A DNA stretch of 64,000 nucleotides from an uncultured bacterium (lineage in GTDB: Bacteria; Hydrogenedentota; Hydrogenedentia; Hydrogenedentales; Hydrogenedentaceae). The notes beneath the pieces were generated by a model. That model was given only the letters and a program-made list of their open reading frames with translations. It did not search any database and was not told the DNA's origin. Below, piece by piece: positions 5,449 to 59,513 of the stretch; within the stretch, counting starts at the first letter, position 1, and every line of letters starts with the position of its first letter. Location of the stretch: contig CAKZKR010000109.1 in NCBI GenBank assembly GCA_937124615.1, forward strand, positions 12,338 to 76,337. Direction: 5' to 3'. Position numbers and translations under genes: made by a program.

Positions 5449-5916
5449 ATGCCACGGCATAGTGGAGAAAAGTTAATTGTTCAAAATCGGAGGGCTCATT
5501 TTGATTATGAAATATTTGAGCGATATGAATCGGGGGTAGTATTAAAAGGTACGGAAGTGAAATCATTGCGGACTTCAGGGAGTATGTCGATACAGGATGC
5601 GTATGTGGATTACGAAGAAGGAGAGTTGTTTCTTGTGAATTCGTATATTCGCCCTTATGAGCAAGGTAATATTCTAAATCATGACCCGCACCGGAAGAGG
5701 AAACTGCTATTACATAAACGGGAGATTGTTCGTCTTGGGAAAAGAGTTGAGGAAAAGGGGTTGACTTTAATCCCTTTGCGTGTATATTTCAAAAATGGTT
5801 TGGTAAAAATCGAGATTGGATTGGGTCGTGGTAAGAAGGTAATTGATAAACGAGAAGATATAAAAAAGAAAGATACACAAAGAGAGATAGAAAGAGTTAT
5901 AAAAAGATATCGATAA
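5449..5916 (+). CDS. smpB: SsrA-binding protein SmpB
   Basis: 155 aa. N-terminus IVQNRRAHFDYEIFERYESGVVLKGTEVKSLR is the canonical SmpB signature, with a basic C-terminal tail. Confidence 0.9.
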   Translation: MPRHSGEKLIVQNRRAHFDYEIFERYESGVVLKGTEVKSLRTSGSMSIQDAYVDYEEGELFLVNSYIRPYEQGNILNHDPHRKRKLLLHKREIVRLGKRVEEKGLTLIPLRVYFKNGLVKIEIGLGRGKKVIDKREDIKKKDTQREIERVIKRYR

Positions 5917-11326: not shown

Positions 11327-12679
11327 TTAAAATACATAAGTAAACAATTCATCTTTTGCTAATGAAAAAATAGAGTTATTCTCTCTGTGGAGATTTTTAC
11401 TTAGAGCGGGTTTGTTTATTATGACTTCATCTTTTTGATTTCCTTCTATATCAAAGGAACGATAAATAAGGCGGTTTTTTGTACCTGTTTCAATCGTTAT
11501 AATCTGATAGGTAGGAATTTTTGTAAATGCGGTTTCAATGATGTCTGTTTTTTCCTGTTGTTCATAGGCTTTTGTCCCTGAAAAAGAGATAACATAATAG
11601 GTTCCTTCTGATGGAGATGAGACTTTCTGGTCATTTTTTAATGGATAAGTGCGCCAATATGAGTGGTCATGACCTTGAAAGACCATATCAACATGATATT
11701 GATCTATTAGAGGTAGCCATGCATTTTTTAAGTGTCTATTGTCTCTTTTGGGTGCAGAGCTGTAAAGCGGTTGATGAAACAATAAAAACTTCCATGTGGA
11801 GGAAGACTCTGAAAGTTGTTGTTCTAACCAGGGTTTTTGATGTTCCGGATTATGGTTACCATTTAGGATAATAAATTGTGCGTTTGAGTATGTTAATGAA
11901 TAACAAAATTCATTGGTAATATTTGTAGGACCATTTTGAGGTAATACAAAATAATCGAGATACATTTTGGGTAAGAGAGGATTTGATTTATATTCGTGGT
12001 TCCCTATTGTTGGAATTATTGGATATTGAGCAAAAACATTGTCAGAGTAATGAAAAAAAGCATCCCAATCGTCTCGTTCGTTTCCTCGATTTACAAGGTC
12101 TCCAGCCATTAAAATAAAAGAACAATCCGGACATTTTTCAACAGATGTTTTCAGTAATTTTCCCCATTCTTCAAATCCGTTTTGAGCATCTCCTAAGTAG
12201 ATAAAGGAAAAGGATTGAGTCTGTAAAGGTTCTGTTTTAAAGGTATACCAATGGCTCCATATATCCTGAGAGGAGTTCCCGATTCGATATTCATAAGTTG
12301 TACCTGGTTCTAATGATTTTAAGGTAACAAACCACCGATAAATTTCCGGATTGTTTTTTAAGGGGGGGTCAATAATAGAGATGAAATTTGCAGGTGTTTT
12401 TATAATTTGCTCGTTATTCTGGGTAGACTTTTTATGCCATTCAACAATACATTCTTTTACTTCTGGCGAAGTAGACCATTGAATTGTTATGGAAGTTTTT
12501 GGTGTTTCGGTCATCGTTAGTACAATTTGAGATGGGGTTTGGGTAACCGGAAATGAAGTTTCTCTATCAGGAGGTGTTTTTACATCTGAGTATATTGGAA
12601 AAATTGTTGTTAGCAGAATTATACAGGTGGAAATAAAAAAAATAAAATAAAAACTTCTTATTTTTTGAGGTGATTTCAT
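11327..12679 (-). CDS. Secreted metallophosphoesterase, purple-acid-phosphatase-like (FN3-like N-domain plus calcineurin-like phosphoesterase)
   Basis: Signal peptide, then metallophosphoesterase motifs GDAQNG / GDLVNRG / GNHEY / GHDHSY. Confidence 0.8.
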   Translation of the reverse strand: MKSPQKIRSFYFIFFISTCIILLTTIFPIYSDVKTPPDRETSFPVTQTPSQIVLTMTETPKTSITIQWSTSPEVKECIVEWHKKSTQNNEQIIKTPANFISIIDPPLKNNPEIYRWFVTLKSLEPGTTYEYRIGNSSQDIWSHWYTFKTEPLQTQSFSFIYLGDAQNGFEEWGKLLKTSVEKCPDCSFILMAGDLVNRGNERDDWDAFFHYSDNVFAQYPIIPTIGNHEYKSNPLLPKMYLDYFVLPQNGPTNITNEFCYSLTYSNAQFIILNGNHNPEHQKPWLEQQLSESSSTWKFLLFHQPLYSSAPKRDNRHLKNAWLPLIDQYHVDMVFQGHDHSYWRTYPLKNDQKVSSPSEGTYYVISFSGTKAYEQQEKTDIIETAFTKIPTYQIITIETGTKNRLIYRSFDIEGNQKDEVIINKPALSKNLHRENNSIFSLAKDELFTYVF

Positions 12680-13067
12680 CTTATGTCCTTTTCAAAATAG
12701 GTGGGATTTTAACATAAATTAAGATAATAGTTAGATACAAAATATTCAAGAATAGTTTCAATAACTTTTAGTTTCTGAATAAATAAAGAAGGTAGATATT
12801 AAGGAATTACATAATAAGATTAAATACATTATCTGATGACTTTGAAGAAGTAGAAATATGAACATGGTTTTATTGAGTAAGAGAGGATGATATTAATTAA
12901 ATATTTGTATACGGTTAGAATTTATTTATAAGGCTGTTGTATGGAATTTGTTTTCGTATCTATCCAATAATTTAATTATTGAAATAATAAAATTTGAGTT
13001 AAAGGAACAAAGTTCGTGTTAATAAAAATAAAAAACATATAATGATTATATATCTTTTAAAAAAGGT

Positions 13068-13232
13068 GCGCACGGGCATTTCTATCGGAACAGGCATAGG
13101 AGGGGGGATAGGAGCCCGTGCGCTGGGGAGGGTACTGTGCAGGGTAGTGAGGGCTGTGTGTGTGGTAATAATTATTGTTTGTACCTGTGGTCTGGGTTGG
13201 GAGGAAGGCCAGATATAGCAGGGCCAAGTTTT
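13068..13232. ncRNA. Candidate structured small RNA or regulatory element (GC-rich island in an AT-rich spacer), strand unresolved
   Basis: A perfect 10-bp inverted repeat GCGCACGGGC...GCCCGTGCGC encloses ATAGGAG-GGGGG-ATAGGAG. On the + strand it is flanked by A6 (a U-tract on the minus strand) and followed by a G-rich stretch with multiple GGA/GGGAGG motifs. Confidence 0.3.
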
Positions 13233-13645
13233 TGTAAACTTACCTCACTTTCCTCACAGGAAAACTATTCAATTTTAATAGAACTTATTCCTAATTTATT
13301 TATACTATGAACGCCTTAAAAGTTTCAAAAGTTTACAAATTTTTTTGTGTAAAAATCTATAAAAAACAATTTATATAAATTGTTAATTACCTTTCACCCA
13401 ATATTATAACATAAAAAAGTTATAAAATCAAATTTATTAACAAAAAATTACATATCAATTATAATAAAATAATTTGGATATTTATTATATAAAATTTCTG
13501 TATACTTATATGAGAATAAAAGACCGATTTATAAAGCGAATAAAGAAGAACTTAATGTAAAATAAAATAAGAAAATGATGGAAATTAAAACAAGGGTGTT
13601 TTTTATTATAAAAATATAAATGTTTACAATAAAGAGTTAATTAAG

Positions 13646-13695
13646 GATAATAATAGAACTTGTATATTGGAATTACTCTATAATGATAATAGAAC
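13646..13695. promoter_or_regulatory. Direct repeat GATAAT(AAT)AGAAC x2 in the fliM upstream region (candidate regulator binding sites), with a possible TTCAAA-N18-TATAAT promoter just downstream (13741-13768)
   Basis: Two copies at 13646-13659 and 13685-13695. A TATAAT hexamer lies at 13763-13768. Confidence 0.25.
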
Positions 13696-13789
13696 AAATG
13701 GATAGTGATTTTACAATTAATTTTATCTTAGTGATTTATTTCAAAAATGGGGTGTCTATTCGTTATAATCAAATAAAAGGGTTATAACA

Positions 13790-14794
13790 ATGGCAGATAT
13801 TTTAAGTCAGGACGAGATCGACCTACTATTAGGTTCTGTTACCACTGGAACTGTTGATACTATAAAAAGAGAGGAACAGGAAGGCGAGCAGAAGGTAAGT
13901 GTCTATGATTTTCGTCGTCCGGAACGGGTTTCGAAAGAACAGTTAAAGGGATTACAAAGTATATTTGAATCTTTTGCCCGTGAACTTACAATTGTTCTTC
14001 CCCCTTATTTTCGTACTATAGTTCGTGTTGATTTGGTATCTATTGATCAATTGACTTATGATGAGTTTATTCTTGCCATTTCCCGACCAACTTGTTTGAT
14101 TGTAGTTAATATGTCTCCTTTGGATGGGGCCGGAATTTTAGAATTGAGTCCCACTGCAGTTTTTCCTATAATCGATCGGGTATTAGGGGGAAAAGGAAAA
14201 ATAATACCGGAGTTGCGGGAATTAACAGAGATAGAGGAGCGCATCATAGGGCGTATTGTAGATATGATGTTAAATTGTCTAAAGAGGGCATGGGAACAGG
14301 TTATTGAATTAAATGCTCGGGTCGAATCAATAGAAAGTGACCCTTTAATAGTACAGATTGTCGCAGGTAGTGAGATGACCGTTCTTGTAAGTTATGAAAT
14401 TCATGTAGGTGAGAATACGGGAACGATAAATTTTTGTATTCCTTTAATGGTATTAAATCCTCTTCTCGACCAGATATTGAAGATGGCTCATTATGCACAC
14501 CGAGTTAGTCCTGAAGAAGCAGAAATGACGCGTATTATGTTGTTAAAACTACTATTAAATGCAAATATAAAGATGGATACAATTTTAGGGAAGGTGAAGG
14601 TGGAAATGAATGATTTGTTACAATTGAAAAAAGGAGATGTATTGGTCCTGAATAGAAATGTTGAGGAGCCTATTATAGTTGAAATTGAAGGTTTACCAAA
14701 ATTAAAAGGAACAATCGGTAGACGAGGAGAGGAAATGGCCTTGCGTATATCTTCTATTATTAGGGATGAAAAAAATCCTGAGAATTTTTTATAA
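13790..14794 (+). CDS. fliM: Flagellar motor switch protein FliM
   Basis: N-terminus MADILSQDEIDLLLG (the CheY-P binding motif of FliM). 334 aa, with a FliM middle domain and a SpoA-like C-terminus. Confidence 0.9.
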   Translation: MADILSQDEIDLLLGSVTTGTVDTIKREEQEGEQKVSVYDFRRPERVSKEQLKGLQSIFESFARELTIVLPPYFRTIVRVDLVSIDQLTYDEFILAISRPTCLIVVNMSPLDGAGILELSPTAVFPIIDRVLGGKGKIIPELRELTEIEERIIGRIVDMMLNCLKRAWEQVIELNARVESIESDPLIVQIVAGSEMTVLVSYEIHVGENTGTINFCIPLMVLNPLLDQILKMAHYAHRVSPEEAEMTRIMLLKLLLNANIKMDTILGKVKVEMNDLLQLKKGDVLVLNRNVEEPIIVEIEGLPKLKGTIGRRGEEMALRISSIIRDEKNPENFL

Positions 14795-16848: not shown

Positions 16849-17754
16849 TTGGAATCAAAAGAAGATAGCATCAGGTTTTTTGAGATGACATTATTGATTG
16901 TTATTACATGGTTGTGTGTTTTAATCGTTGTATTCTGTTTATTTTATTATGTATGGGATGACCGGAATAAGAGGAAGCTTCATGAACATCGTAGGGTAGA
17001 AATTAGTGAGTTAGCAATGGTATTTCAGACTTTGAGGGATGTTGTGTCGGAACAGAAAATACTTGCAAAAGAATTTAATGAACAGGTGGAAGAGAAGTTA
17101 TTATTAGTCCGTACTATGGTAAATGAATCTCAGAGTAGGATGAAAAAGATACAGCAGGAGATATCCGAACAATATCAAACATTGAAAGATTTGCAGGAAC
17201 AAATTGATAGGATTGTTTGTCAGAAGAATGCCTTGTTAGATATATCAGCGAGAGATGTAAAATCAGTGGAGACAATTTCTATCATAGAGGCGGAATCTGT
17301 GTATGGGGAATTGACGAATAATTTAGAAGTAGAGAAAGATAAGAATGTTTTTCATTATGGTTTTGATGAAAGGGATCGTGAAGATGTTGTTATTGATGAT
17401 AGGAATAAGGATATGCAGGTAGCTCTATCAAAAGAGATTAAACAAGAGGAATTAGAAAAGGATGATGAAGAAAGAGGTAAAATAGGAAAAGGCCAAGAGA
17501 ATATTAGGGAAGATTATCGTCCTTTGTTAGTAGGTTCTGTAGATGAGGGAATCCAAGTTAAGATGGAAAAGACACCAATATCTAATCAGTATAATGTTGA
17601 AGAAAGAAATGAGTTAACTCCTATTCAAAAAATGGTATTGGAATATCACAATGCAGGAATGACTACTGGAGAAATAGCCAGGGAATTAGGAAAAACAAAG
17701 GGAGAGGTACGTCTTATTTTAAGCCTTGCACTTTCAAAGCATAATGAAGAATAA
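16849..17754 (+). CDS. Hypothetical membrane-anchored coiled-coil protein with C-terminal sigma-70 region-4/LuxR-like HTH
   Basis: One N-terminal TM helix (LLIVITWLCVLIVVFCLFYYVW), a long coiled-coil, and a C-terminal LTPIQKMVLEYHNAGMTTGEIARELGKTKGEVRLILSLA. The real start is possibly ATG at 16885. Confidence 0.5.
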   Translation: MESKEDSIRFFEMTLLIVITWLCVLIVVFCLFYYVWDDRNKRKLHEHRRVEISELAMVFQTLRDVVSEQKILAKEFNEQVEEKLLLVRTMVNESQSRMKKIQQEISEQYQTLKDLQEQIDRIVCQKNALLDISARDVKSVETISIIEAESVYGELTNNLEVEKDKNVFHYGFDERDREDVVIDDRNKDMQVALSKEIKQEELEKDDEERGKIGKGQENIREDYRPLLVGSVDEGIQVKMEKTPISNQYNVEERNELTPIQKMVLEYHNAGMTTGEIARELGKTKGEVRLILSLALSKHNEE

Positions 17755-17781: not shown

Positions 17782-19014
17782 TTGTGTCTGGAAGTTGAAA
17801 TGTTAAACGAAATACCTTTTATCCCGTATAATCAAATATTGCCTCACTATGCGTGGATTAAAAAATTTGAGAATGATGTAATACAGGGAATGGTTCGTAG
17901 TAGTGGTACTGAAAAATGGGTTGAATGGAAAGGTGCTCGTATCCCTTTACCTAAAGATAGTGAACTGCCGGAGGGGGCCTGGCTTCAAATCCGTATTGTA
18001 TCTACTTCTCGGGGATATGAATTGGATATTGAATTGCTGAAGGGTTCTAATGTTAATACCGCATCCCCTAAAGTTTCGGACTTATTGTCAAAGACACAAC
18101 AGAATTTTTTAGGCAAGGATCATGCTATTTATGAACTTGTACAAAAAGTTATCGGTTACAATCCAGATTTAGTAGGTAAGATAGACTTGATGACAAAACT
18201 TTTCTATAAGTGGTTTGATGATGCGAATACAATAAATCAGTTGTTTGCTAATATAAATAAAATTATTCAGGAAGCCATAGAAAAAGGGGTTCTTGATAGT
18301 TCATGGTTAAAAATTTATCCTGGAAATATTGTTTTTCAACCTAATGAAAAAATAGATTGGCAGGTAATCGGTAATTTCTTTAAGTGGCAAATGCAAAATT
18401 TAAGTTTTGAGAAACAATTATTTCTGAAAGAAGAAGGTGCAGAATCTAATATTCAAAAATCCCTAATTGAAATAAAGGATTATCGTGTTCTTCAAGCATT
18501 ATTAAAAAATGAGTCTTTTGTTGGTTTTCTTAGAAGTAAAGGTTATTATCAAGAGTTTCAAAAGAACTTAGATACGCTCTTTTCAAAGTTTATGACAAAT
18601 CAATTATTAAATTTGATTAATACAAATTATAGTTACCTCGTATTGGACTTACCTGTAAGTGTTCACGATGGATTTAATCGTGTTTGTATTCATACTTGTT
18701 TCTCGAGAAAGGAAGAACAAAATAAAGGGAAAAAACATCAATATGCTGTTGTTGCTTTTGATATAGAACTGATTAATGCAGGGAAAATGTGGATAGAACT
18801 TCGTTGGTTGGAAGATACATTGGATTGTTTGTTCAGAGTTGTTGAGAAGGAAACAGAAAGAATATGTAAATGTTCTTTTAATGAACTGGAAGATAGTTTT
18901 AAGTCATTAGGATTAAAGAATATAAACATTCGTATTCAGAGTTGGGATGGAGACCGAATAAAAAGTATGGTTTCTCTTCTGGAGTCCATTGAAAATAAAG
19001 GGTGGTCTGTATGA
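17782..19014 (+). CDS. Hypothetical protein, flagellar-operon associated (positional candidate for a FliK-like hook-length regulator)
   Basis: 410 aa with no motif I can name. Its position directly upstream of the FlhB-C-terminal-like gene mirrors the fliK/ylqG-ylqH arrangement. Confidence 0.35.
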   Translation: MCLEVEMLNEIPFIPYNQILPHYAWIKKFENDVIQGMVRSSGTEKWVEWKGARIPLPKDSELPEGAWLQIRIVSTSRGYELDIELLKGSNVNTASPKVSDLLSKTQQNFLGKDHAIYELVQKVIGYNPDLVGKIDLMTKLFYKWFDDANTINQLFANINKIIQEAIEKGVLDSSWLKIYPGNIVFQPNEKIDWQVIGNFFKWQMQNLSFEKQLFLKEEGAESNIQKSLIEIKDYRVLQALLKNESFVGFLRSKGYYQEFQKNLDTLFSKFMTNQLLNLINTNYSYLVLDLPVSVHDGFNRVCIHTCFSRKEEQNKGKKHQYAVVAFDIELINAGKMWIELRWLEDTLDCLFRVVEKETERICKCSFNELEDSFKSLGLKNINIRIQSWDGDRIKSMVSLLESIENKGWSV

Positions 19015-19310
19015 ATAAAGATGAGCAAAATAAAAAAGATAATGATTTACATATTAAAAGAGCCATTGCTTTAAAGTATGAAGTACATAAGGATAATGCT
19101 CCTCGTGTTATTGCAAAAGGAGAAAGATTAACAGCAGAACGGATTATTGAACTTGCTCGCGAAAAAGGAATCTTTATTCATGAAGACCCTGAACTTGTAA
19201 TTCTATTATCAAAAGTGGATGTAGGAACAGAAATTCCAGAGATTTTGTATCGTGCAGTGGCGGAAGTCCTTGCATTTGTTTATCGAATGAATCAAGAACT
19301 TCGTAAATGA
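19002..19310 (+). CDS. FlhB C-terminal domain-like protein (EscU/YscU/HrcU-family small protein, YlqH-like)
   Basis: 102 aa. IALKYEVHKDNAPRVIAKGERLTAERIIELAREKGIFIHEDPELVILLSKVDVGTEIPEILYRAVAEVLAFVYR matches the conserved FlhB-Cterm family. Confidence 0.8.
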   Translation: MVCMNKDEQNKKDNDLHIKRAIALKYEVHKDNAPRVIAKGERLTAERIIELAREKGIFIHEDPELVILLSKVDVGTEIPEILYRAVAEVLAFVYRMNQELRK

Positions 19311-22742: not shown

Positions 22743-22745
22743 AAT

Positions 22746-23036
22746 TTATTTGATTTTTTTTAACTCGGTTAGTTTATGGGAGAATTTTAATTTAAATTCA
22801 TCGGGTATTTCTAATAATTTTACTTTGCTTGTTTTTCCTTGCACAATACAAATCTCGTTTTTGTTTATTTCCATCCAGTCCGCAATTAAACGGATTAGTC
22901 TCTCATTGGCTTTTCCTTTTTCAGGAGGAGCCTTTACATGGATGTGTAATATGCCATCTTCTTTTATTTTGATAGTTTCTGTATGTGCGTTGGGTAAAAT
23001 ATAAACTTTAAATCTGTGTTTGGATTTCGATGACAT
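22746..23036 (-). CDS. DUF167/YggU-family protein (UPF0235)
   Basis: 96 aa. The KAPPEKGKANERLIRLIA...VQGKTSKVKLLEI pattern is typical of YggU. Confidence 0.6.
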   Translation of the reverse strand: MSSKSKHRFKVYILPNAHTETIKIKEDGILHIHVKAPPEKGKANERLIRLIADWMEINKNEICIVQGKTSKVKLLEIPDEFKLKFSHKLTELKKIK

Positions 23037-23234
23037 TCTAACTGTATTTACTGTGTTATTAAAATTTTTAATTAATAAACTTTTGAAATTAACTAATATA
23101 TTATAAAAAAAATAGGGAGTCTTGTTATTGGGTTATATAAAAATTATAAGAACCAAAAGGGATTAATAAAACCCGTTTTAAACAAGACTCCCATCAAGAG
23201 CACAAGAGGATAATTCAATTGTAAAAGTTTTTTG

Positions 23235-23447
23235 CTATGAGTTCCGTTTTTGTATAAAATTTGCCTTAATGGAACCATACGCAGGAGATGCTGTTGTGGA
23301 AGTCGTCATTTCTGGCATTTCTCCAAAATACTCTTCATAGCATCCGATATGCCAGTATTCTCCCTCGATTTCAACAGCCTCGTCAAACTGAAACTCAATG
23401 TCCTCTATGTACTCATTACAAAGAGCACAGCGTTTCATTTTATTCAC
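23235..23447 (-). CDS. Small hypothetical Cys/His-containing protein (possible zinc-binding)
   Basis: 70 aa with CALCNEY...WHIGCYEEYF. Confidence 0.35.
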   Translation of the reverse strand: MNKMKRCALCNEYIEDIEFQFDEAVEIEGEYWHIGCYEEYFGEMPEMTTSTTASPAYGSIKANFIQKRNS

Positions 23448-23748
23448 CTCGCTTTCTATCGCAATTTAGGGTTTATAATTTATATATTAATAACGAAAAA
23501 AAAGAATAAAAAATTCTTTTTATGTTAATCTTATTTCTAAATACTTAGTAAACGAACCTCACTACCTTGTTGATATACACAGGTCCATTAGGTTGTCTAT
23601 ATATTTATACCATATTTAATCCTGAAAGTCAAGTAAAAATTCGATTAAAACAAAAAAACAATAAAATTTTATAAGTATTTTGTTGTCAATATCTTACGAA
23701 TAAAAAATTCCATTATAGCATTTTTTTTCTTTTTTATGGTTGATTTTT

Positions 23749-59354: not shown

Positions 59355-59450
59355 ATGGCTACAGCTAAAAAGGCCGCTGCAAAGAAGGCTCCTGCGAAGA
59401 AAGCCGCTGCAAAGAAGGCTCCTGCAAAGAAAGCAGGTTGCAAAAAGTAA
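59355..59450 (+). CDS. 31-aa lysine/alanine-rich basic micro-protein (AKKA/PAKK repeats; histone H1/HU-tail-like, candidate nucleoid-associated peptide)
   Basis: RBS aaaggaga 6 nt upstream. Translation is MATAKKAAAKKAPAKKAAAKKAPAKKAGCKK. It contains an internal 30-nt tandem duplication and is GC-rich relative to its surroundings. It is bracketed by a promoter and a strong terminator, and is not in the ORF track (<60 aa). Confidence 0.55.
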   Translation: MATAKKAAAKKAPAKKAAAKKAPAKKAGCKK

Positions 59451-59478
59451 AGTAGGATAAGATTTCTACTTTTTCACG

Positions 59479-59513
59479 CACAGGTCACATGAAAATGTGA
59501 CCTGTGTTTTTTT
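59479..59513 (+). terminator. Rho-independent terminator after the micro-protein gene
   Basis: CACAGGTCACA-tgaaaa-TGTGACCTGTG is a perfect 11-bp stem followed by T7. Confidence 0.9.

Follow-up and report, generated by a model that had tools for sequence, protein, structure and literature searches.

A candidate divergent small RNA gene with anti-Shine-Dalgarno motifs upstream of fliM in uncultured Hydrogenedentota

What is a short GC-rich island with a perfect inverted repeat doing in an otherwise AT-rich spacer upstream of the flagellar gene fliM? The question arises in a 64,000-nucleotide (nt) stretch of DNA, here called the window, from an uncultured bacterium of the family Hydrogenedentaceae (contig CAKZKR010000109.1, positions 12,338 to 76,337). 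The phylum Hydrogenedentota is uncultured and occurs commonly in anaerobic digesters, sediments and groundwater; no description of its regulatory RNAs was found in the literature searched. The window genome is Candidatus Hydrogenedens-like, its FliM protein sharing 93% identity with the Ca. H. terephthalaticus counterpart; three public metagenome contigs carry the same strain. An earlier reading of the letters alone (the sequence-only reading) had flagged the island as a candidate small RNA (sRNA) between a phosphoesterase gene and the flagellar operon. The spacer, 12680-13789, does have these two neighbors, the phosphoesterase gene on the left and fliM on the right. The contrast in composition also holds: in 100-nt intervals the GC fraction is 0.55-0.56 across 13050-13199 and 0.09-0.30 in the flanks, and the island at 13068-13232 is 55% GC in a spacer of roughly 20% GC. 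Both repeats described earlier are present, namely the 10-base-pair (bp) inverted repeat GCGCACGGGC/GCCCGTGCGC at 13068-13077 and 13114-13123 and, inside it, the direct repeat ATAGGAG-GGGGG-ATAGGAG at 13096-13114. The run of six A residues next to the hairpin is there as well, at 13059-13064 and not at 13061-13066 as had been given.

Based on comparative analysis, we assign a probability of about 0.62 to the following answer: the island would be the body and Rho-independent terminator of an sRNA gene on the minus strand, driven by a promoter of the extracytoplasmic function (ECF) sigma type, whose product would repress translation by base pairing through motifs that resemble the anti-Shine-Dalgarno (anti-SD) sequence. 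The comparative boundaries place the true feature at ~13059 to 13336, beyond the flagged island. Its predicted parts are listed in Table 1.

Table 1. Features of the candidate sRNA gene and its surroundings (window coordinates).
Feature	Position	Strand	Basis or remark
-35 element GTAAAC (AAC core), ECF-sigma-type promoter	13331-13336	-	comparative box
-10 element CGTT	13310-13313	-	17 nt after AAC in nearly all members; invariant in alignment A6
Predicted 5′ end, start about 13302 ± 5	13297-13307	-	placed from promoter geometry
Predicted sRNA, ~244 nt	13059-13302	-	conserved region, fold z = -4.6, consensus fold, R2 match
5′ arm of long-range helix (CUGUGAGGAAAGUGAGG)	13243-13259	-	RNAalifold consensus, 4 AT-rich relatives
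Hairpin UCUGG-CCUUCCUCCCAAC-CCAGA	13191-13213	-	anti-SD-like motif 1 in loop; folds
3′ arm of long-range helix (CCCUCACUACCCUGCACAG)	13135-13153	-	same consensus; invariant in 4 relatives
Linker UACCCUCCCCA (anti-SD-like motif 2)	13124-13134	-	unpaired in minimum-energy and consensus folds
Terminator hairpin P1′	13068-13123	-	10-bp GC stem (13123-13114 / 13077-13068); covariation
Inner 5-bp stem of P1′	13111-13107 / 13086-13082	-	encloses C-rich loop with anti-SD-like motif 3 (CCCCCCUCCUAUG)
U6 tract, predicted transcript end	13059-13064	-	after 3-nt ACC spacer 13067-13065; conservation stops exactly here
Back-to-back sigma70-like promoters	13391-13477		shared with four AT-rich Hydrogenedens relatives; lies ~320 nt upstream of fliM
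Proximal fliM promoter TTCAAA-18-TATAAT	13740-13769	+	also kept in 5 AT-rich relatives; outside the RNA
Purple-acid-phosphatase-like metallophosphoesterase gene	11327-12679	-	left neighbor of spacer
fliM	13790-14794	+	right neighbor, followed by fliN/Y and sigma28-like genes (fliM-fliN-fliA operon)

Conservation and extent of the element

The comparison set consisted of 80 fetched fliM loci from species-representative genomes. When the spacer was compared with these loci by BLAST, 13056-13483 alone was conserved, with 90%, 89% and 82% identity in three other species (loci L001, L002 and L004, respectively), and the rest of the spacer was unalignable. Absence from related genomes, named beforehand as a reason to abandon the sRNA idea, is therefore not what the comparison gave. 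In anchored alignments we saw no conservation to the left of the A-run, in close or distant relatives, and none to the right of the TTGACA box.

Profile and covariance-model searches located the core of the element in distant relatives with 50-70% GC, whose FliM proteins are 52-59% identical, at 200-500 nt upstream of fliM. Its presence in these genomes argues that the element is no mere quirk of base composition in AT-rich DNA. We modelled the minus strand, from promoter box to tail, in a second covariance model, R2; it gave 42 matches among 82 sequences, one per locus and all on the strand opposite to fliM, sequences outside the seed included; its match in the window spans 13055-13149 on the minus strand. 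Altogether, about 40 uncultured Hydrogenedentota genomes of 38-70% GC carry the element. A metagenome contig (L154), found by the DNA pattern GGAGG-N0-4-GCGCRYGGG-N10-40-CCCRYGCGC alone, has it ~240 nt upstream of a fliM gene; among the matches listed for that pattern this contig alone is genuine, and the rest are chance GC-rich hairpins. A search of the window with filters off found no second copy. The left neighbor varies among genomes, from the phosphoesterase gene of the window to a polysaccharide-deacetylase-like gene in L035 and L047. By these comparisons the element is syntenic and phylum-level, and it travels with fliM. Several GenBank third-party-annotation metagenome-assembled genomes with a Hydrogenedentota-type fliM locus and the predicted sRNA are labelled 'uncultured Nitrospirales/Nitrospiraceae bacterium' (L004, L008, L009, L012, L015 and others), labels that may reflect taxonomic mislabelling or bin contamination.

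Promoter, terminator and transcribed strand

At the right-hand end of the element the minus strand carries a two-part box, which we searched for in the form T[CA]A[AT]C-N17-CGTT (also GT[CA]AAC-N17-CGTT). At the syntenic site, 35 of the 80 loci carry the box TGTCAAC(C)-N17-CGTT(T), which makes 36 copies with the one in the window; matches elsewhere in these loci are at chance level. The window version, GTAAAC-N17-CGTT, is unique in the 64 kilobases (kb). The two parts lie exactly 23 nt apart, start to start, and read [AT]AACG and [TA]TGAC(A) on the plus strand. Thus the box has a -35 element with AAC and a -10 element with CGT at the ~16-17 nt spacing of ECF promoters. Published targets of Streptomyces sigmaE have the form nnnAAC(C)-N17-CGTC (PMC6767563). 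Because form and spacing match these targets, the box is best described as a leftward ECF-sigma-type promoter pointing into the island. The distance from box to hairpin is ~55-95 nt, and 185 nt in the window group; relatives share a conserved (A/G)U(A/G)GAA beginning 9-11 nt past CGTT. Two other assignments were considered. TTGACA taken as a plus-strand sigma70 -35 element has no conserved -10 element downstream, and the ECF form fits better than a sigma28 promoter (TAAA-N17-CGAT-like), for which there was no flagellin or late flagellar gene to compare.

At the other end, the inverted repeat in the window folds on the minus strand into a GC-rich hairpin that precedes a U-tract, which is the arrangement of an intrinsic terminator. 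The minus strand therefore reads from a promoter-like box at one end to a hairpin and U-run at the other, and the plus strand does not. Textbook minus-strand terminators lie ~85-100 nt past the box in L030, L038, L039 and L040, where the hairpin is followed by UUUUUUAUU, UCCUUUUUU, UUUUGUUUUU and UCUUUUUUU, respectively; the one in L038 was also called by the terminator scan, with 15 pairs and the tail CCTTTTTTCC.

The helices themselves carry information on the strand. In a strand-symmetric wobble test of 29 distinct terminator stems, Watson-Crick pairing alone gave 294 bp, which rose to 350 bp with minus-strand wobbles (28 G·U) and to 313 bp with plus-strand wobbles (14 G·U). Several of the minus-strand wobbles are internal and bridge long Watson-Crick runs (8 to 17 in L022, 7 to 14 in both L030 and L039, 7 to 15 in L040 and 7 to 11 in L051), whereas those of the plus strand are mostly extensions at the ends of stems. 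At one terminator pair the R2 alignment has C-G in 24 sequences and U·G in 8. The fold z-score in the window is -4.6 for the minus strand and -2.9 for the plus strand. With four lines of evidence in agreement, these data point to the minus strand as the one transcribed. Of the two possibilities raised by the sequence-only reading, comparative evidence thus favors the intrinsic terminator of a C-rich minus-strand sRNA; the candidate sRNA survives on that strand, and its plus-strand version does not.

Structure, motifs and proposed action

Read on the minus strand, the island has a C content of 41% and a G content of 15%. The predicted RNA is C/U-rich, ~240 nt long in the window and about 90-125 nt in high-GC relatives, the window group having ~130 extra nucleotides relative to other members. 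The terminator helix shows the compensatory substitutions across homologues that are expected of a structured RNA. In the R2 alignment (A7) its core is 93.5% paired, compared with 24-49% when the partners are slid, and compensatory changes are seen at 11 of the 13 pairs. The helix has a covariation score of 0.314; shuffles give 0.165 ± 0.012 (range 0.10-0.17), and none of 500 reaches the observed value. Most members have a second hairpin upstream of the terminator, with a stem that varies in sequence (GGAGGAGGGCG/CGCCCUCUUCU in L035, GGAAGAAGGCG/CGUCUUCUUCC in L054, GGAAGCAGGUG/CACCUGUUUCU in L042 and CAGGUAG/CUACCCUG in L008) and a loop that is often CCCUAC-like. In the window group the consensus fold adds a long-range helix, which is tentative because it is drawn from four sequences with no compensatory change.

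The element matches no known RNA family in our searches. An Rfam scan, suggested as a check by the sequence-only reading, gave nothing credible in 12600-13800 even at E ≤ 10 (Rfam 15); the whole window at gathering score had no match, nor did 16 related loci, CsrB/Rsm and riboswitch families included. Covariance models of CuKoo/alpha-r14, sX13, RsaE and RepG did not recognize the window or the 16 relatives as homologues, and ARAGORN found no transfer RNA or transfer-messenger RNA (tmRNA).

What the members do share are C-rich motifs in exposed positions, as in sRNAs that base-pair through anti-SD sequences. CCUCCU is the most enriched motif in the body of the RNA, present in 15 of 28 non-redundant members where 2.3 are expected. 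On average, CCUCC is unpaired with a probability of 0.79 and CCCC with one of 0.85, compared with 0.48 overall. The window RNA has three exposed copies of CCUCC, one each in the hairpin loop CCUUCCUCCCAAC, the linker UACCCUCCCCA and the terminator loop CCCCCCUCCUAUG, and in many relatives the terminator follows a homologous CCUCC(CC) linker. Genes in the window have ordinary AAGGAG/GGAGG Shine-Dalgarno (SD) sequences.

Given the exposed anti-SD motifs and the precedents of NfeR1/CuKoo, sX13 and HPnc5490, we propose a trans-acting RNA that pairs with ribosome-binding sites, and its most likely role is that of a repressor. We infer transcription, the sigma factor, the transcription start, the base-pairing action and the targets, and the model runs as follows. 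Once the cognate alternative sigma factor is active, transcription would start near 13302 and the predicted RNA would accumulate, its 3′ end set by the inverted repeat 13123-13068 and the ACC-U6 that follows. Its redundant anti-SD-like motifs would then pair with the purine-rich ribosome-binding regions of target messenger RNAs (mRNAs), and this pairing would block translation initiation. The invariant place beside fliM-fliN-fliA suggests that motility genes belong to the regulon, or else that the two transcription units share a divergent regulatory region; possibly, an ECF stress response is linked to motility in this way.

Several observations weigh against this model of an ECF-controlled pairing sRNA. 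(i) No ECF sigma gene is present among the window open reading frames (ORFs) scanned, and the box is quasi-palindromic (AAC...GTT), so that it can also be read as a plus-strand promoter of the SigR/SigH-like type. (ii) In the window terminator the loop is 36 nt long and 3 nt separate the stem from U6, and a simple terminator scan made no call there; in many relatives CCUCC stands between stem and U-run, which is suboptimal for intrinsic termination, and a few relatives have no U-run. (iii) In the 5′ hairpins alone the wobble count is G·T 11 versus A·C 16. (iv) The long-range helix of the window group has no covariation support, and the compensatory change at 16 of the 19 populated pairs in A4, an anchor-built alignment of the 29 distinct stems, counts for its covariation alone because an alignment built from helices is 100% paired by construction. 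(v) CUCCU is found in 19 of the 28 members and is not universal, with weaker motifs in L038-L040, L010, L011 and L019. (vi) Complementarity of the RNAs to their own fliM start regions is no better than in shuffled controls (mean z = -0.2). (vii) The host organism is uncultured, and the RNA is predicted from sequence alone.

A minus-strand RNA could also act on a protein or on the ribosome, which it would bind or sequester, instead of pairing with mRNA; we consider this unlikely. Its partner might be ribosomal protein S1, a KH-domain protein that binds poly(C)/CU, or a factor that recognizes the 3′ end of 16S ribosomal RNA (rRNA). Such an RNA would have an identical gene anatomy, and the multiple redundant exposed C-rich motifs would suit it equally. 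The 3′ end is hairpin-CCUCCUUUUU in many relatives, and a 'hairpin + CCUCCUUU-3′' tail is similar to the 16S rRNA 3′ end; the fliM start regions tested yielded no specific mRNA target. However, the locus shows no link to any candidate partner protein, the window group has ACC-U6 in place of the tail motif, and known RNAs with repeated anti-SD or C-rich motifs use base pairing.

Less probable again is that the element works at the level of DNA and transcription, as an insulator in which a strong, possibly bidirectional terminator shields the fliM region and the box is a transcription factor site or a plus-strand ECF (SigR/SigH-like) promoter of fliM. In several genomes a plus-strand gene does end 5-15 nt before the hairpin, and the near-palindromic AAC-N17/18-GTT box does lie upstream of fliM. 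However, no plus-strand gene to insulate against lies upstream in the window or in other genomes, and G-runs, in place of U-runs, come after the hairpin when it is read on the plus strand. An insulator would have no need of the conserved C-rich loops, linker and second hairpin, and the G·U pairs are legal on the minus strand only. Within the box, the long conserved element corresponds to the minus-strand -35 (TGTCAACC) and the short one to CGTT, as in ECF promoters.

A further conjecture, and something of a long shot, is that the RNA would mimic the 3′ end of 16S rRNA. Many members have a stable hairpin followed by a free CCUCCUUU(U)-3′ tail, in addition to anti-SD copies in loops. As a soluble 'decoy anti-SD' made under an ECF stress signal, the RNA would compete globally with ribosomes for strong SD sites, or for factors of the 16S 3′ end, and would so couple translation capacity to flagellar assembly.

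The plus-strand alternatives fare worse. A GGA/GGAGG-rich RNA that titrates CsrA in the manner of CsrB/RsmZ, as the sequence-only reading had considered, is very unlikely in our judgement, and so is a structured 5′ leader, or a riboswitch, belonging to the fliM operon. The plus strand does have eight GGA, and also folds; AAAGGAGG/GGGGAGGAA flanks occur in relatives, and the orientation relative to fliM is fixed. Yet no promoter is conserved to the left and there is no conserved plus-strand terminator, and A·C mismatches break the plus-strand helices where the minus strand has G·U. A conserved fliM promoter lies downstream of the element, which therefore falls outside the fliM mRNA. The strand that appears to be transcribed has two GGA, the annotated parts of the window, flagellar cluster included, showed neither csrA nor fliW, and no match to a CsrB/Rsm or riboswitch model was found in the window or the 16 relatives. 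Plus-strand models of the element (A2, R1) were dropped once its boundaries, the terminators and the pattern of wobble pairs all favored the minus strand, and with them the ideas of an SD decoy, of a leader peptide, of a G-quadruplex and of sites for sigma54 or sigma28 in the island.

Least probable of all, to the point of being hardly credible, is a small protein-coding gene or the remnant of one: ORFs of 56-58 amino acids cross the island on both strands, and one of them, a 58-amino-acid plus-strand ORF at 13042-13218, is predicted by gene callers and called on the public same-strain contigs, but two indels separate close relatives, one of 1 nt in the G-run and one of 2 nt in the (TG)n tract, which shift every candidate ORF so that no frame is conserved, the island ORFs have no Pfam match, and distant homologues keep the structure in common but not the reading frame or start codon. 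On this comparative evidence the element is non-coding, and the decayed gene that the sequence-only reading had allowed for is not indicated.

Flanking features and relation to known systems

Two further promoter regions lie between the element and fliM. The back-to-back sigma70-like block consists of a plus-strand promoter, TTAACA (13437-42) and TATAAT (13460-65), and a minus-strand promoter, TTGATT (13431-26) and TG-TATAAT (13408-03). It is farther from fliM than the proximal promoter and could serve as a distal fliM promoter, as the start of a longer sRNA isoform, or as both. In high-GC relatives (L006, L008, L009, L013, L015, L017 and others) the fliM promoter is TTGCGC-N17-TATACT with a TG extension, strongly conserved at ~40-130 nt upstream of fliM, and its window counterpart is TTCAAA-18-TATAAT. 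A TATCTGGC box ~60 nt upstream of the -10 element of this promoter in high-GC relatives may be an activator site. A 34-codon ORF at 13683-13787 (+) that ends 2 nt before fliM is not a gene, because stops interrupt it in all close relatives; the conservation there belongs to the fliM promoter.

Elsewhere in the window, the fliM operon encodes a 301-amino-acid protein with DUF6115 and a sigma70 region-4-like C-terminus (16849-17754, +) and a 102-amino-acid stand-alone FlhB C-terminal-domain protein (19002-19310, +). The sole other strong GC island among window spacers, at 59356-59451 (+), is a 31-codon Lys/Ala-rich ORF (MATAKKAAAKKAPAKKAAAKKAPAKKAGCKK) with an AAAGGAG SD sequence, a TTGACA-18-TATAAA promoter-like site and a canonical terminator, a hairpin with a run of seven T residues, at ~59476-59512; its product may be a small histone-like or nucleic-acid-binding basic protein. 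In the ~1-kb spacer 22743-23748 the GC fraction rises mildly (0.47 near 23344). An SmpB gene lies at 5449-5916 (+), and no tmRNA gene was detected anywhere in the 64-kb window.

For the sRNA itself, the locus offers a complete and testable gene model, with promoter, start, structure, terminator and seeds, tied to the flagellar switch operon. It also illustrates that GC-rich islands in AT-rich spacers can reveal RNA genes whose GC-rich homologues composition would hide. If the model is true, the recurring 'exposed anti-SD motif' solution known from rhizobia, Xanthomonas, Helicobacter and staphylococci would gain an independent lineage, and in Hydrogenedentota a connection of motility with a stress sigma factor of the ECF type would be indicated.

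Several known systems resemble this arrangement. E. coli MicA, RybB and MicL are sRNAs that depend on the ECF factor sigmaE. UhpU, MotR, FliX and FlgO, which are flagellar sRNAs, depend on sigma28 (PMC10578931). Like both sets, the window RNA would come from an alternative-sigma-driven sRNA gene and feed back on envelope or flagellar expression. Its box has the ECF AAC-N17-CGT form, its own sigma factor being deduced from the letters of the promoter. The E. coli flagellar sRNAs are derived from untranslated regions, whereas the window sRNA would be a free-standing divergent gene, and there is no homology between them. The likeness to CsrB/RsmZ is superficial and confined to the GGA/GGAGG repeats of the plus strand: the opposite strand appears to be transcribed, there is no array of repeated GGA-loop hairpins, and no csrA was seen nearby.

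In motif and proposed action the closest parallels are C-rich. RsaE/RoxS and other Staphylococcus aureus RNAs of the RNAIII/RsaE type are C-rich sRNAs that pair with G-rich sites near translation starts. The C-rich apical loops of Xanthomonas sX13 likewise pair with G-rich motifs near translation starts and repress the mRNAs that carry them, independently of Hfq and with effects on motility genes, and the UCCCCCU loop of HPnc5490 (RepG) in Helicobacter pylori represses the chemotaxis receptor TlpB. These RNAs are unrelated to the window family in sequence; here the strongest motif is CCUCC(U) and not a run of four or five C residues, and it lies partly in the terminator loop or tail. Rhizobial NfeR1/CuKoo carries three redundant CCUCCUCCC anti-SD motifs, one per hairpin, and silences many mRNAs at the ribosome-binding site, with motility among the target pathways. 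Like NfeR1/CuKoo (alpha-r14) and AbcR1/2 of the alpha-proteobacteria, the window RNA has redundant anti-SD motifs in unpaired parts. It differs from them in phylum, in its ECF-like promoter and in its constant adjacency to fliM, shares no detectable homology of sequence or structure with them and has no Rfam match; its length is variable (about 90-245 nt) and its motif less uniform. The predicted sRNA family is thus new, and its kind, sigma-factor-controlled with exposed anti-SD or C-rich seeds, is well known.

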